This document shows, piece after piece, positions 5,183 to 60,408 of a stretch of DNA of 64,000 nucleotides. The DNA is from Patescibacteria group bacterium (lineage in GTDB: Bacteria; Patescibacteriota; Minisyncoccia; Phycocordibacterales; SBAW01), in the NCBI GenBank assembly GCA_016176685.1, contig JACOWS010000001.1, positions 11,577-75,576 of the forward strand. Direction: 5' to 3'. A program made the position numbers and the translations under genes. The notes below the pieces were generated by a model. That model was not told where the DNA came from, did no database searches, and worked only from the letters and a program-made list of their open reading frames with translations. Each line of letters opens with the position of its first letter. Within the stretch, counting starts at the first letter, position 1.

Positions 5183-5980
5183 TCAAATAGTAGGCCCTTG
5201 GGCAAGGGCAAACAGGTTTTTGAAAAGCATAGCGACGGTAATAGGTCCCACGCCGCCGGGGACAGGGGTAAACACCGATGCCACATTGGCGCACGCGGGG
5301 TCGGCGTCGCCTGCCAACTTCCCCACAGCTTCCGAAGTACCTGCATCTATAAGCACAGTTCCCTGTTTGATCATATCGGGTGTAATCAGCCCCGGCTCGC
5401 CAGCTCCCAACACTACAATATCGGCATTTTTGAGTAATATCAGACGTCCGTCATGTTTTGTGACTACCTCCACGTCGGCACCAAGGTCGCGAAGAAGAAC
5501 AGCCGCAGGCGCCCCTACAAGCTTTCCAGCACCCACTACCACAGCTCTCGTATCTGCGTGAAGTTTAGCTTCATTCAGAAGATTTGCGTGTTGTAATATT
5601 TTTAACACCGCTCCTGCAACTGGTGGGAGAACAATAGCATTTTGCCCTAAACCATCGACATCTCTCTCCGGCTGGAGTGCCGCCACCATCTCATCCGCAT
5701 TAGGAATAGGCATCTGGATAATGACACCCGCCGTTGCCTTTGAAAGCCGCAGAACGGCATGTATGGCATCTGTCGTGGAGGAATCCTTGGCAAGCACCTC
5801 ACGCGACACATCTACGCGCAGTCGTTTTGCCGTGCGCTCTTTGATACGCACGAAGGAGTCGCTGGCGGCGTCTCCTGCACCCATCACAACACCTAGCCGC
5901 AATACCAGCGGCAAACTCGCCCGCTCTTTTTCGAGCTCCTGTAATATCTCCTCCGCTATTTTCTTGCCGTCCACAATCAT
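5183..5980 (-). CDS. folD: Bifunctional methylene-THF dehydrogenase/methenyl-THF cyclohydrolase
   Basis: MIVDGKKIA start, NAD(P)-binding VVGAGKLVGAPAA, PGGVGPITVAMLFKN C-terminal motif. Confidence 0.9.
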   Translation of the reverse strand: MIVDGKKIAEEILQELEKERASLPLVLRLGVVMGAGDAASDSFVRIKERTAKRLRVDVSREVLAKDSSTTDAIHAVLRLSKATAGVIIQMPIPNADEMVAALQPERDVDGLGQNAIVLPPVAGAVLKILQHANLLNEAKLHADTRAVVVGAGKLVGAPAAVLLRDLGADVEVVTKHDGRLILLKNADIVVLGAGEPGLITPDMIKQGTVLIDAGTSEAVGKLAGDADPACANVASVFTPVPGGVGPITVAMLFKNLFALAQGPTI

Positions 5981-16130: not shown

Positions 16131-16499
16131 CTACTTTAGCTCGACCTTGCCTCCAGCCGCTTCAATCGCCTTCTTGATAGCCTCGGCCTCCTCCTTCTTC
16201 ATCCCCTCTTTGAGAACCGTCGGGGTGGCATCAACGAGGTCTTTGGCCTCTTTTAGCCCCAAACCAAGCGCGTCTTTGACCGCCTTGATAACCTGCACCT
16301 TAGCTGCGCCGGCGTCGGTTAGATGTACGTTGAACGAGGTCTTCTCCTCGCCCGCCGCCGCACCGCCCGCCGCCGGAGCCGCCGCGACTGCTGCGGCCGA
16401 GACGCCCCAATGCGCCTCAAGCGCCTTGACCATCTCGTGGAGCTCCAGGACCGACATTTTTTCGACTTGGTCTACAATACCTTTAAATTTCTCATCCAT
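16131..16499 (-). CDS. rplL: 50S ribosomal protein L7/L12
   Basis: N-terminal dimerisation segment, Ala/Gly/Glu hinge, C-terminal [24 protein letters not shown]. Confidence 0.95.
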
Positions 16500-16528: not shown

Positions 16529-17047
16529 CTATTTATTTTGTTCAGCTCTCGCATTAAGTACCATGGCGAATCGCTGCAAGGGGCTGTTAATGAGCTGTAC
16601 AAACTGCGCTCGCAAACTATCTAATCCCGGGATAGCGGCGATGGAAGTTATCTCCTCTTTGCCGACGAACTTTCCGCCAAAGACGCCGCCTGCAAACGCC
16701 AGGTGCTCGCCAAACTTTTTGACAAACACGGCAAGCTCGCGCGCGGGAGCAAGTTCGTCGCTTTTTGTATTGTCCGCCGATAAATCGGTGGGTGCCCAGG
16801 CAAGCGCTATCTCGCCCTCCAACTTAGGCGCGGTACCCTGGAATTTTGCTTCCTCAAGGCCGCGGCGTATAAGAGACTTCTTTGCCACGGTGTATCCGAT
16901 GTCCTCTGCGCGCAGTGCTTTGCGCATTTCGGTTGCCTCGGCAACCGTGAGCCCCTTAAAGTTTGCAAAAACGAGCGTTTTTGCCTTCTTGGCAATTTCG
17001 CTTACTTTTGCGACTACCTCTTCTTTCTTCTGTCTGGTGATAGCCAT
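16529..17047 (-). CDS. rplJ: 50S ribosomal protein L10
   Basis: [12 protein letters not shown]...[21 protein letters not shown], typical L10. Immediately upstream of rplL. Confidence 0.95.
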
Positions 17048-17165: not shown

Positions 17166-17299
17166 GACTAATTTATCGCGGATGCGCCACCGAGTCAAGG
17201 TTGCGGTCTGGCGCACTTATGTACGATGCGGTCACCATCACACCAAAAGCAACGCCGATAATTACCACAAAACCGAAGAAGAAATGGAAGAAGGTCTTA

Positions 17300-17983
17300 T
17301 TAAACATCTCTTCTATTATACTCTATTCCCAAGGACTCCCCTTGGAAGCCCTTGAACTCCTTAAGCATCTCCTCGACACTTTCGAGTGCGGAGACATCGG
17401 TGGGCAATGCGTCTTTGGTAAGGATAACTTCTTCCTTCCGCCCGGCGTGGAAGTAGTCCTCGTAGCTCGAATAGCTAAAGCGTTTTATGAAAGCAACTGC
17501 GCCCGCAACATCAGTCAAACCATTTTCTTTCCAGCTAGACTCAAATAAATCAAGAGGGTTAAGGTGTACATACGAAAATAGCCACCTAAAATAGTCGTCG
17601 CTGTCTACGCGCCTTGCCCGAAACGGCTTACAAAACAACCCCCCGCTTCTTTTGTACTTTTGGTTAAAGTACATCGAGTGGGCGGTCAAAAGCCGGCCCA
17701 AAAATCTGCTAGCTCCTCCTTTTTGATCCTCCCGAACAATAAGGTGAAAATGATTTGGCATGAGCGAGTACGCTAAAATACTCAAAATACGCTGTCCCAC
17801 TTCACTTTCCAAGGGCGACCCTTGTATATCCTTATATACTAATGGTTTTTTGCCGTTACAAAGATGTAACAGACTTTGGAAGCGTTTCCAGTCAGTATCT
17901 TCTTGAAAGATTGAGCGCTTTTCGACCCCACGATTGTAGATGTGATAAAAATCGCCGGGGATAAATGCAAATTTCCTTTGCAT
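17300..17983 (-). CDS. IS200/IS605-family Y1 (HUH) transposase / REP-associated tyrosine transposase-like
   Basis: YHIYNRGVEKRSIF...AYSLMPNHFHLIV (HuH motif)...YKRSGGLF matches the Y1_Tnp (IS200-like) fold. Confidence 0.8.
   Translation of the reverse strand: MQRKFAFIPGDFYHIYNRGVEKRSIFQEDTDWKRFQSLLHLCNGKKPLVYKDIQGSPLESEVGQRILSILAYSLMPNHFHLIVREDQKGGASRFLGRLLTAHSMYFNQKYKRSGGLFCKPFRARRVDSDDYFRWLFSYVHLNPLDLFESSWKENGLTDVAGAVAFIKRFSYSSYEDYFHAGRKEEVILTKDALPTDVSALESVEEMLKEFKGFQGESLGIEYNRRDV
17326..17345. repeat. REP-like palindrome CCAAGG-ACTCC-CCTTGG
   Basis: Inverted repeat at the 3' end of the transposase gene. Confidence 0.6.
17808..17826. repeat. REP-like palindrome CAAGGG-CGA-CCCTTG
   Basis: Inverted repeat sharing the CCAAGGG/CCCTTGG core. 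Confidence 0.6.
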
Positions 17984-18013
17984 TTATGCATTATATCAAA
18001 CAAACAAAAGCTT

Positions 18014-18038
18014 TCCAAGGGTCGCCCTTGGAAAGGGG
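18014..18038. repeat. REP-like palindrome TTCCAAGGG-TCG-CCCTTGGAA
   Basis: 9-bp-stem inverted repeat just upstream of the transposase start, with the same core. Confidence 0.6.
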
Positions 18039-18040
18039 TT

Positions 18041-18610
18041 TTACAGGGAGGAGGATTGAGAGGAATAGTAGTTTGCTTTGGCCTCATCGTGGAGAAAGTT
18101 TTGGTACAAGTCGGCAAGATTGCTGTAGGCAACGGGAGAGGCGGGCCACTGTTTGGTGACATAGAGCCAAATGGTTTCGGCGCCACGGTAGTCGCCGCCT
18201 ATTTTGTGGAGAATGGCCACGTTCATCCATGCGTCGAAGTTCAGGTTGTTTTTGTCGAGCAGTGCCACATCTGCCGCAAGTTTTGTCTCAATTACCTCGC
18301 GCACGTCTTTTGCGACCGATTCAGCATATATGACAGGCGCGCGGTAGTCTGGGGGCGGTATGCTTGGGCTTGGAGAAACGGGGATCTCCGTAATGGTGTA
18401 GTCGCCGCCGGTGGTAGACGCTGTGACTCCGTTTTGAGTAGCCGCGGTATCATCCAACGACACCGAGCCGGCAGTCTCTGGGTTTGCCTGCCTATAGTAG
18501 ATATAACCGCCTAACAACAGCGCCAGGACAAGGAGCGTTACAAGTAAGTTGCGCTGTGCGGGAGATAGTTGCATAGGAATTAGCATAGCACAAAAATACA
18601 AAAACCCCAC
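18041..18610 (-). CDS. Hypothetical membrane-anchored protein (Pro/Ser-rich linker, C-terminal globular domain)
   Basis: N-terminal TM (LLVTLLVLALLLGGYIYY), then a low-complexity linker and a ~90-aa C-terminal domain. Start may be the internal M. Confidence 0.5.
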   Translation of the reverse strand: MGFLYFCAMLIPMQLSPAQRNLLVTLLVLALLLGGYIYYRQANPETAGSVSLDDTAATQNGVTASTTGGDYTITEIPVSPSPSIPPPDYRAPVIYAESVAKDVREVIETKLAADVALLDKNNLNFDAWMNVAILHKIGGDYRGAETIWLYVTKQWPASPVAYSNLADLYQNFLHDEAKANYYSSQSSSL

Positions 18611-18720
18611 TCGTAATGAGTGGGGTTTTTGCTTGCCCGTCCGTAGCCTTGTGGCAAAGGAGGGCTTGCAACTGTTGTCGCCAGCTGCACTAACTCAAGA
18701 TGTGAGTTAGATGAGCGAGA

Positions 18721-47822: not shown

Positions 47823-49085
47823 CTATACGAACGAATCGGTAATTGGGTGGGCTTGGGCAAGTGCCTTAACCTCGCTGTTGATTGTGGTAAGTATGACCTT
47901 GTCGGCGCGGCCTTGGAGTGCCATGAGCATAAGCTCTGCCACGCGCGCGCTTTCTTTCTCTTTAAAACCGCGTGTGGTTATAGCCGGGGTGCCAAAACGG
48001 ATGCCGGAGGGGTCCATGGGGCTGCGCGTGTCGTTTGCAATGACATTTTTGTTGAGCGTAATGCCCGCGCGGTCCAAGACCTCCTCGGCCTCTTTCCCGG
48101 GGATGCCGAGCGAGCCAAACACGTCTGCAAGGATAAGGTGATTGCTGGTCCCGCCCGCTATCATCCGCACCTTGCCCGCACGGAACACTGCCTCCATCGC
48201 TTTGGCGTTTTTAAGAATCTGGGCGGTATACGTTTTGAAGTTTGGATGGAGTGCCTCGCCAAAGGCAACCGCCTTCGCCGCAATGACGTGCATCAAGGGT
48301 CCGCCTTGGAGCCCAGGAAACACCGCTTTATCTACCTTTTTTGCAATCTCTTCGCTCTCGCGAATGAGGATTAGCCCGCCGCGCGGCCCTCGCAGTGTTT
48401 TGTGTGTGGTTGAGGTCATCACGTCAAAGCCAAAGTCAAAGGGGTTTTTGGCCGCACCCCCGGCAATGAGCCCTGCGATGTGGGCGATATCTATCACGCT
48501 GTAGGCGCCGACCTCGCGGGCAATGTCGACAAACTTCTGGTAGTCGAGCTCGCGGCTATAGGCGGAGAAACCAGCGAGCACAATTTTTGGCTTGTGCTTT
48601 TTGGCGGTGGCACGCATCTCGTCGTAGTCTATTTCTCCTGTCTCAACATTTTTCATCTGATAGCGCACAAAATTGAAGAACTTGGTGATGTAGGTAACCG
48701 GGTGGCCGTGGGTCAGGTGCCCGCCGTGGGAAAGGTCCATGCCAAGCAGGGTGTCGCCGGGGTTAAGAAGCGCAAAGTACATCGCGATGTTGGCATTGGC
48801 CCCGGAGTGCGGTTGTACGTTGGCAAAGCGCGCGCCAAACAGTTTTTTAGCGCGCTCGATGGCGGCAACCTCGGCCATGTCGGTAAACGGCTGCCCGCCA
48901 TAGTAGCGCTTGCCCGGGTATCCTTCCGAGTACTTGTTGGTCAAAATAGAGCCCTGCGCCTCGCGCACTGCCTTACTCACGTAGTTTTCCGAAGGAATTA
49001 GTTCCAACCCGTCGCGCTCGCGCTCCTCCTCACCCCACAGCGCCGTGTACACCTCCTTGTCTTGTTTTTTTATAAAGTCGTACAT
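47823..49085 (-). CDS. glyA: Serine hydroxymethyltransferase
   Basis: LELIPSENYVS, GYPGKRYYGG, and PLP-lysine region TTHKTLRGPRGG. Confidence 0.95.
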   Translation of the reverse strand: MYDFIKKQDKEVYTALWGEEERERDGLELIPSENYVSKAVREAQGSILTNKYSEGYPGKRYYGGQPFTDMAEVAAIERAKKLFGARFANVQPHSGANANIAMYFALLNPGDTLLGMDLSHGGHLTHGHPVTYITKFFNFVRYQMKNVETGEIDYDEMRATAKKHKPKIVLAGFSAYSRELDYQKFVDIAREVGAYSVIDIAHIAGLIAGGAAKNPFDFGFDVMTSTTHKTLRGPRGGLILIRESEEIAKKVDKAVFPGLQGGPLMHVIAAKAVAFGEALHPNFKTYTAQILKNAKAMEAVFRAGKVRMIAGGTSNHLILADVFGSLGIPGKEAEEVLDRAGITLNKNVIANDTRSPMDPSGIRFGTPAITTRGFKEKESARVAELMLMALQGRADKVILTTINSEVKALAQAHPITDSFV

Positions 49086-59587: not shown

Positions 59588-59631
59588 AGGAAGCCCTCAA
59601 CTCCAAGGCGACGCCTTGAGAGCCCTTTGAC

Positions 59632-60408
59632 TTAAGGCGTCGCCCTTAGTGCTTGTTCCGCCGCCGCGAAGTCCGGCGGCAGAGGCGCGGTAAAGGTCAT
59701 TTCTTTGCCGTCGGGGGCCACAAAGGAAAGATGCAGCGCGTGGAGCGCCAGGCGCGAAAAGCCAAAGAGCGCCGGGCGGCCGGGCGCGTAGAGAGCGTCG
59801 CCCACCACCGGGTGCTGCATTGCAGAAAAATGCACTCGTATCTGGTGCGTGCGCCCGGTCTGCGGAAATACTTCGACGTACGAGGCCTCGGCTCCTTTGG
59901 CAAGCACGCGGTACGCGGTGAGCGCGTCGCGCAACACCCCGTAGGGCGAGCGCGCCGAGCGCGGCCCCCTGCCCCCGCGCGCGCTGCCAACCGGCTTGTC
60001 TATGATGCCGCGCTCATCTTTGAGCGGGCCGTATACAAACGCGCGGTATACTTTTTTTACTTCCCTGTTTTTAAATTGCGCTTTCAAAAACTCGGCAGCC
60101 GCTTTTGTTTTCGCCACAACCAAGGCACCGCTCGTTTCCCTGTCGATGCGGTGGACAATATATATTTCCCCATATTTTTTTCTGAGCCACGCATCGAGCG
60201 CCGGGTAGTCGTGCACGCCATCCGGATGTACAATCATCCCCGCGGGTTTGTCTACCACCACCATGTCTCGGTCCTCAAACAAAATTGTTGGCTCCATGTT
60301 GATGGTTATAACACAAGTGGCCACAAGTCGACTTTGCTCGTCAGCAAAGTCGCTCGCGACCCCGGCTCGCGGTTTTGCAAATGCAAAACATCGCTGTGCC
60401 CTGCACAA
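59632..60408 (-). CDS. RluA-family pseudouridine synthase (likely start MEPTILF at ~60297)
   Basis: VVVDKPAGMIVHP and HRIDRETSGALVVAK (catalytic Asp) motifs. Confidence 0.85.
   Translation of the reverse strand: MCRAQRCFAFAKPRAGVASDFADEQSRLVATCVITINMEPTILFEDRDMVVVDKPAGMIVHPDGVHDYPALDAWLRKKYGEIYIVHRIDRETSGALVVAKTKAAAEFLKAQFKNREVKKVYRAFVYGPLKDERGIIDKPVGSARGGRGPRSARSPYGVLRDALTAYRVLAKGAEASYVEVFPQTGRTHQIRVHFSAMQHPVVGDALYAPGRPALFGFSRLALHALHLSFVAPDGKEMTFTAPLPPDFAAAEQALRATP

Follow-up and report, generated by a model that had tools for sequence, protein, structure and literature searches.

A Y1 HUH nuclease gene and three matching palindromes as a probable minimal REPtron/TIRtron-like module in Patescibacteria

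Results

A Y1 HUH nuclease gene with one upstream and two intragenic palindromes

A 64-kb stretch of a Patescibacteria genome (contig JACOWS010000001.1; hereafter the window) carries on its minus strand an open reading frame (ORF) of 227 amino acids (aa), at 17300..17983, which the ORF list and Pfam together identify as a Y1 HUH nuclease gene. It lies upstream of the ribosomal protein genes rplJ and rplL and is accompanied by three related palindromes, at 18011-18035, 17806-17827 and 17326-17347. An initial annotation, made from the sequence, had described a single-copy transposase ORF with a HUH motif. This was confirmed: the Pfam profile PF01797 (Y1_Tnp) matched the ORF with 27.8 bits, above the 23-bit cut-off, NHFHLIV was found at residues 77-83, and the window holds one Y1 gene copy. 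The annotation had also reported three related palindromes flanking the ORF. The palindromes are real, but only one lies upstream; the other two belong to the ORF itself, one over codons 53-59 and one at the C-terminus.

The upstream palindrome (18011..18035), read on the minus strand, is CTTTCCAAGGG-CGA-CCCTTGGAAAG, a perfect 11-bp stem with a 3-nt loop. It lies 3 nt past the stop codon of the upstream gene, which encodes a tetratricopeptide repeat (TPR)-like membrane protein, and continues into CTTTTGTTTG; from its sequence it looks like a terminator of the TPR gene. The T-tail is not conserved in orthologues. The internal palindrome (17806..17827) reads CAAGGG-TCG-CCCTTG on the sense strand. 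It is in frame, covering codons 53-59 (I-Q-G-S-P-L-E), and in the predicted structure falls in the loop that joins helix A to strand 2. A repeat search placed all three palindromes, the upstream one with 18012-18033, in a single family and found the internal and upstream copies to be 86% complementary over 29 nt. The internal copy has its loop flipped relative to the upstream one.

The 3' palindrome (17326..17347; sense strand CCAAGG-GGAGT-CCTTGG) has no T-tail in the window and encodes the C-terminal residues F-Q-G-E-S-L-G. In orthologues the stop codon directly follows this palindrome, giving C-termini such as ...FQGESLEK*, ...FQGVTLER* and ...FQGDSLE*. The window ORF is 8 codons longer (GIEYNRRDV*, 17300-17325) than the orthologues that end in ...FQGESLEK*, apparently as the result of a 1-nt change after CCTTGG, and the extension overlaps the start of a small membrane ORF.

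The palindrome pattern is commoner in the window than expected by chance. The pattern CCAAGG-N5-CCTTGG with at most one mismatch occurs at 5 sites against 0.17 expected, three of the five being the gene's palindromes; a longer version, TTCCAAGG-N5-CCTTGGAA, allowing up to three mismatches, occurs at 4 sites against 0.37 expected and takes in all three. In folding as single-stranded DNA (ssDNA), the upstream copy had the lowest energy, -11 kcal/mol (z -4.1), with -5.5 kcal/mol (z -2.4) for the 3' copy and -5.0 kcal/mol (z -2.6) for the internal one. A further palindrome covers the start codon (17961..17987; ATAAATGCAAA / TTTGCATTTAT; perfect over 11 bp, -8.9 kcal/mol, z -3.8). It is lineage-specific: the 89% identical orthologue keeps 7 bp of it, and it is missing from more distant orthologues. 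Sequestration of the start of the leaderless mRNA is one possible role; alternatively, the palindrome may be a by-product of the MQRKFAF codons.

The encoded protein is of the RAYT type

The HUH motif of the protein is H78-F-H80 (17744-17752), the catalytic Tyr138 (17570-17572) lies within YVHLNP, and a tail motif YSSY occupies residues 171-174. In an alignment of 35 homologues, Y13, H14, R18, G19, N77, H78, F79, H80, Y138, H140, N142, S172 and S173 were invariant and P143 was kept at 90% or more. A protein search yielded over 1,800 homologues with lengths of about 220 aa, and all taxon names given by the sources were Patescibacteria groups. The AlphaFold model (pLDDT 89.6) had as its top match in the Protein Data Bank (PDB) 4er8_A, the Escherichia coli RAYT (a tyrosine transposase associated with repetitive extragenic palindromes [REPs]) bound to a REP hairpin (E 3e-5, TM 0.64 on target), followed by structures of ISDra2, IS608 and IS200 transposases (2xm3, 2a6m, 2f4f and 2vjv). 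The C-terminal tail of about 85 aa is helical in the model. Pfam detected only Y1_Tnp at E <= 0.1, with no helix-turn-helix (HTH)-like domain (Bac_DnaA_C, HTH_23, HTH_28) in the tail.

Quentin et al. (2018; PMC6006769) defined class 2 proteins by the motif Y...NP, and IS200 transposases by Y...Q and a length of about 150 aa. The window protein has Y...NP (YVHLNP), not Y...Q. It also carries the motif set of subclass 2.1 (NHFH, YVHLNP, S172-S173) at 227 aa against about 238 aa, which would place it nearest to that subclass by comparison of motifs and length alone. As judged by its motifs and predicted fold, the ORF encodes an intact Y1 HUH enzyme, a class 2 ssDNA nuclease/ligase of RAYT or TIRYT rather than IS200 type. 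The initial annotation had called it an IS200/IS605-type, RAYT-like transposase. The second half of that description holds, given Y...NP and the 4ER8_A fold; the first does not, given the tail, the single copy and the lack of any near-identical copy.

The same arms recur at three fixed positions and covary with codons

The palindrome survey was extended to 80 genome loci, and family counts were made on 83 non-redundant Patescibacteria loci, with permuted loci as the null for shared arms. In 63 of the 83 loci one and the same 6-nt hairpin arm occurred at the 3' end and ahead of the ATG (mean in permutations 4.3, maximum 11). At least 19 loci had an internal copy within the ORF as well, as compared with 2.2 in permutations; inspection added L033, L036 and L067 to these 19. 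The positions varied little. Across the 83 loci the inner arm of the upstream copy had its mode at -47 relative to the ATG, and the 3' copy straddled the stop codon, mostly from -5 to +15. The internal copy lay at +156 to +159 in many loci, near codon 53.

The sequence at these three positions depends on the genome. It is CCAAGG-GCGAC/GTCGC-CCTTGG in the window and in L004 (the 89% identical orthologue), CCAAGG-TGACA-CCTTGG in L005 (61%) and CCAAGG-GCTCC/GGAGC-CCTTGG in L008 (58%). Arms were diverse among genomes, including CCAAGG, ACAAGG, GCAAGG, CATAGG, TAGAGG, CGGAGG, GCTAGG and others, and paralogues that share one genome bore different arms (L045/L062 and L034/L049).

QGxPL is a conserved peptide in the homologue alignment, and the intragenic copies might accordingly be traced to a repeated peptide. 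Codon usage at the internal site largely refuted this. Where the residue is Gln its codon was CAA in 15 of 15 cases and the paired Leu codon was TTG in 15 of 15, while TTG accounts for only 17% of Leu codons elsewhere in Y1 genes. Where it is Glu, GAA pairs with Phe TTC. Where it is Lys, AAA pairs with Phe TTT in L029 and L060; in five other Lys cases the partners were Leu codons, with little or no stem. Amino acids thus vary at the internal site while base pairs persist, indicating selection on pairing rather than on the peptide. We conclude that there is selection on base pairing inside the Y1 coding sequence.

The upstream palindrome overlaps a promoter-like site

A promoter-like site lies at 17990..18018 (minus strand), with TTGGAA at 18018-18013, a 17-nt spacer and TG-TATAAT at 17995-17990; it has 10/12 matches and an extended TG. 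The 3' arm of the upstream palindrome provides the -35 box TTGGAA of this Y1 promoter. The Y1 ATG follows 6 nt past the -10 box, which implies a leaderless mRNA. Across the family, TAnnnT begins exactly at -12 in 58 of the 83 loci, and Shine-Dalgarno-like motifs were present in only 4. These sequence patterns point to leaderless mRNAs in the family, with the -35 box within the palindrome. Transposases that repress their own promoters are a classic arrangement resembling this placement of a palindrome over a promoter, and the Y1 module is probably autoregulated.

The hairpin is not dispersed in the window

The initial annotation had proposed a REP-associated architecture with the hairpin dispersed through the genome as REP-like elements. 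The REPtron-like arrangement is upheld by the family counts, but no dispersal was seen: by the criterion that detects distal copies in relatives, the 64 kb held no further copy, and exact and degenerate pattern searches together with a census of all hairpins revealed no recurrent palindrome family in the window outside the Y1 gene. The module has thus not seeded a REP population within these 64 kb.

Individual candidates fared no better. A palindrome at 5195-5208, at the junction of the folD 3' end and the secD start, had been put forward as a fourth copy. The sequence is present, but its arms have the opposite polarity, so that a different hairpin would form, and its fold (z -1.8) was not better than that of shuffles. 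A pattern match at 48293 lies inside glyA and is within or near chance. At 59601-59650, two imperfect palindromes, TAAGGGCGACGCCTTA and CAAGGCGTCGCCTTG, stand side by side in inverted orientation; they are similar to the Y1 hairpin core and extend over the stop codon of a pseudouridine synthase gene (59632..60408, minus strand). The pair may be a diverged distal doublet; it is weak and close to chance expectation.

The flanks of relatives, 787 kb in all, contained 16 distal copies (about 1 per 50 kb); a control that used the arms of other loci gave 1.04. Tandem copies occur upstream of Y1, with six in L079, four in L017, three in L005 and two in L004. The six copies of L079 (9640-9975) are arranged as repeated doublets, with a terminator-like hairpin in the spacer, and are REPIN- or BIME-like. 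The repeat in L004 is a 57-bp duplication in which the -10 box is duplicated too.

The Y1 gene is a probable long-standing resident of its locus

The Y1 gene was said to have been inserted next to an rplJ leader. Comparison with the loci of relatives revealed conserved synteny instead. The order begins with a large PG-binding surface protein, a TPR protein and Y1; zero to three genes and a small membrane ORF come next, and rplJ-rplL, a 209-aa protein and an MscS-like channel complete it. It was kept for the orthologues L004, L005 and L008/L011 (the latter two at 58% identity) and in some ten loci at the species level, with identities as low as about 40%. In relatives, two genes of about 200 and about 610 aa lie between Y1 and rplJ; their absence in the window lineage is what makes Y1 adjacent to rplJ there. 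An Rfam scan at E <= 1 gave no match at all between Y1 and rplJ, and hence no L10 leader, and no evidence was found for the suggested effect on rplJL expression.

The Y1 gene is also under constraint. Between the window and the 89% identical orthologue dN/dS was 0.13 (dS 0.40), and the ORF was intact in all 83 non-redundant family members. No pair of Y1 genes from different species among the 83 was more than 78% identical, which speaks against recent horizontal transfer or multicopy status. The family is probably inherited vertically for the most part in Patescibacteria, as a long-term resident rather than a recent insertion.

Genes around Y1 in the window are transcribed in the same direction. 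The TPR gene (18041..18610, minus strand) comes first in the order from 18.6 to 16.1 kb, and rplJ (16529..17047) and rplL (16131..16499), both on the minus strand, come last. Directly upstream of rplJ is a small ORF of 44 aa (17173..17307, minus strand; MFNKTFFHFFFGFVVIIGVAFGV...), predicted to form a single transmembrane helix. Its overlap with the Y1 stop amounts to 8 nt, and a TATAAT box precedes its ATG at a distance of 7 nt. Homologous ORFs of 41-53 aa precede rplJ in L004, L005, L008 and L093. Between the TPR gene and the gene for a PG-binding surface protein of 1221 aa is a strong terminator-like hairpin (18598-18632, minus strand; 15-bp stem, T-tail). Sub-threshold Rfam leader matches (Leu, Thr, rnk) map to this hairpin and are probably due to its terminator shape.

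Some close relatives differ in what they carry upstream of rplJ. In L093 (3471-4214 of a Logan contig from SRR28154525), the palindrome CTAGGACGGTCCTGG is present at the upstream, internal and stop-codon positions, and the Y1 gene is flanked by 26-nt direct repeats. In L091 a methyltransferase gene and a DUF1801 gene lie upstream of rplJ instead.

Discussion

A minimal module of one enzyme and its hairpins

We propose that the Y1 gene and its hairpins, which together span about 710 bp (18035 to 17326), constitute a minimal REPtron/TIRtron-like module that is probably autoregulated, the three palindromes being the cognate hairpins of the Y1 enzyme. To this reading as a whole we give a probability of about 0.62. 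The enzyme would bind the hairpins when these form in single-stranded or supercoiled DNA, and binding at the promoter copy would repress Y1 transcription. Cleavage and strand transfer at the copies could keep the hairpins matched to each other, and occasional duplication by strand transfer would give rise to the tandem arrays and rare distal copies of relatives. The internal copy may go back to a hairpin that inserted in frame into a permissive surface loop and was retained as a third site.

Each element of the module has a published precedent separately. The RAYT (TnpA-REP) REPtrons, which include E. coli YafM (PDB 4ER8) and subclasses 2.2, 2.4, 2.5, 2.7 and 2.8, share the Y1 HUH fold and Y...NP, are single-copy and largely vertical, and are flanked by cognate hairpins that covary with the protein; the doublets (REPIN-like) and clusters beside the gene in some Patescibacteria relatives are a further likeness. 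Perfect-palindrome REPs recognised by their own TnpA-REP have been described (PMC8266576). In-frame REPs lie inside tnpA-REP genes of subclass 2.4, between HUH and Tyr (PMC6006769). The Patescibacteria family likewise has an in-frame hairpin inside the gene, but its internal copy precedes HUH, in the helix A - strand 2 loop. Unlike RAYT REPtrons, the family has no GT[AG]G guide, shows no genome-wide REP population (no extra copy in the 64 kb of the window, and roughly one per 50 kb in relatives) and has its upstream copy at a fixed promoter position.

TIRtrons have flanking inverted repeats that stand at fixed distances, may overlap the 5' and 3' ends of the gene, may be self-complementary and, in most genomes, are missing or scarce outside the locus (Di Nocera et al., 2013; PMC3733652). 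The present family resembles their TIRYT enzymes (TnpA-Y1 subclass 2.1, Bertels group 1) in length (about 220-240 aa), in NH[YF]H and Y[IV]HLNP and in the SS tail motif, and its inverted repeats also stand at fixed distances, here with the mode at -47 and at the stop codon. It differs in that the repeats lack the GGGGWSAS motif and the tail has no HTH/DnaA-C-like domain detected by Pfam. Subclass 2.1, the largest, was reported to be without REP-like hairpins (PMC6006769), while short perfect hairpins are the rule in the Patescibacteria family. A literature search found no paper describing this Y1 family in Patescibacteria, and the text of PMC6006769 contains neither Patescibacteria nor Parcubacteria.

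Several observations weigh against the proposed module. The NCBIfam equivalog REP_Tyr_transpos (NF047646) was not reached (32.3 bits against an 80-bit cut-off), so that the protein fails the NCBIfam RAYT cut-off, and a family profile search found no PDB relative by sequence. No 5' GT[AG]G guide is present at the hairpin feet, which are CCCTTTCC.., ATATA.. and GGCTTCC.., and the locus alignments contain no consistent flanking guide or cleavage motif outside the stems. The hairpins, being perfect palindromes without a guide, leave strand choice unexplained. Same and flipped loops between copies are about equally frequent, which no model considered here predicts. Binding and cutting of the hairpins by Y1 are predictions from sequence and analogy, the probable autoregulation is read from the position of the palindrome, and no host benefit is evident for a gene under purifying selection.

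Base composition and distribution add to these reservations. The GC content of Y1 was below that of the 5-kb flanks in every one of 77 loci (L004-L090 plus the window), by 8.6 points on average; in the window it was 0.446 as compared with 0.534. On the side of long residency, Y1 GC correlates with host GC across these loci (r = 0.90) at a constant offset of -8.6 points. Nor is inheritance strictly vertical. L093, with an L10 protein 76% and an MscS protein 70% identical to those of the window, holds in the same slot a Y1 gene that is only 37% identical and has another palindrome, which suggests hidden paralogy or cassette replacement. No Y1 gene was found within 7 kb upstream of rplJ in L091 (L10 84%) or L094 (L10 74%), and no family palindrome in the same 7 kb; the gene has therefore been lost, or lies elsewhere, in some close relatives.

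Alternative explanations

Among the alternatives, all of them improbable, the least so is that the palindromes act mainly as RNA: the upstream one would terminate or stabilise the transcript of the preceding gene, and the intragenic and 3'-terminal stem-loops would control Y1 mRNA stability or translation, with the protein acting indirectly or being unneeded. The terminator-like upstream copy with its T-rich tail is consistent with this, as are the 3' copies, which are at the stop codon, the usual place of stabilising stem-loops, and which in some genomes (the window, L004, L011) keep sense-strand G-T (G-U) pairs. However, the tail is not conserved in orthologues and the 3' copy has none; the upstream copy overlaps the -35 box and is therefore not within the Y1 transcript; and there is no consistent strand bias, L031 and L045 having sense-strand A-C mismatches. 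A role in RNA alone also does not explain why three sites share a genome-specific sequence beside a hairpin-binding nuclease.

A somewhat less probable explanation is a functional but very quiescent IS200-like insertion sequence (IS), with the upstream and 3' palindromes as left-end and right-end subterminal hairpins, a single-strand circle as intermediate and a strong site preference. Like IS200 (IS200/IS605 family, subclass 1.1), which measures about 700 bp, the locus has a single Y1 gene and hairpins near both ends, in its case of roughly 710 bp, and as in many IS the promoter is inside the left end. In IS200 itself, the left-end hairpin can terminate incoming transcription and a second stem-loop lies over the translation start, two features that the locus resembles. 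The constant AT-richness of Y1 relative to its flanks, as often seen in mobile DNA, the presence/absence polymorphism and 37% identical replacement in the same slot of close relatives, and the rare distal hairpin copies fit such an element. Against it stand the single Y1 copy of the window, the lack of near-identical copies whether within or between genomes, the synteny kept to identities of about 40%, the low dN/dS and the 83 intact ORFs. The hallmarks of IS200 are missing: Y...Q, a core of about 150 aa without the long C-terminal tail, near-identical multicopy status, and imperfect hairpins that discriminate strands, perfect palindromes giving no distinction between top and bottom. The conserved third, internal copy would have no role in IS200 transposition.

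Doubtful to a slightly greater degree is a self-contained Y1-hairpin system with substrates only in and around its own gene, which through its promoter, intragenic and stop-codon hairpins would regulate, copy-correct or flip the locus and might swap the cassette from incoming ssDNA. A slot-specific swap of this kind would account for the 37% identical L093 allele with its different hairpin. If this were true, the family would be a vertically persistent element with homing-like maintenance in minimal genomes, not a disperser of REPs.

Least probable by far, and already largely refuted by the codon covariation, is that the palindromes serve a separate dimeric transcription factor as double-stranded operators, for which TCCAAGG-N5-CCTTGGA has the classical form, or that the internal and C-terminal copies reflect a repeated peptide QGxxLE, as the conservation of QGxPL might suggest: pairing extends to the central bases (G..C, T..A), the arms at the three sites of each genome change in concert, residues vary (QG..L, EG..F, KG..F) with pairing kept, and an operator inside the ORF and at the stop codon has no evident use.

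Significance

The Patescibacteria family bears on the cellular role of domesticated Y1 transposases (RAYTs and TIRYTs). On the reading of a minimal REPtron/TIRtron-like module, it would offer an enzyme whose cognate hairpins number just two or three and sit at fixed places, namely the -35 box, an in-frame loop and the stop codon. It is far simpler than genomes with hundreds of REPs, and could be used for in vitro studies of hairpin recognition, autoregulation and strand transfer. The family is a clean case of overlapping protein-coding and nucleic-acid-structure constraints, and it indicates that streamlined genomes of about 1 Mb keep such modules for long periods.

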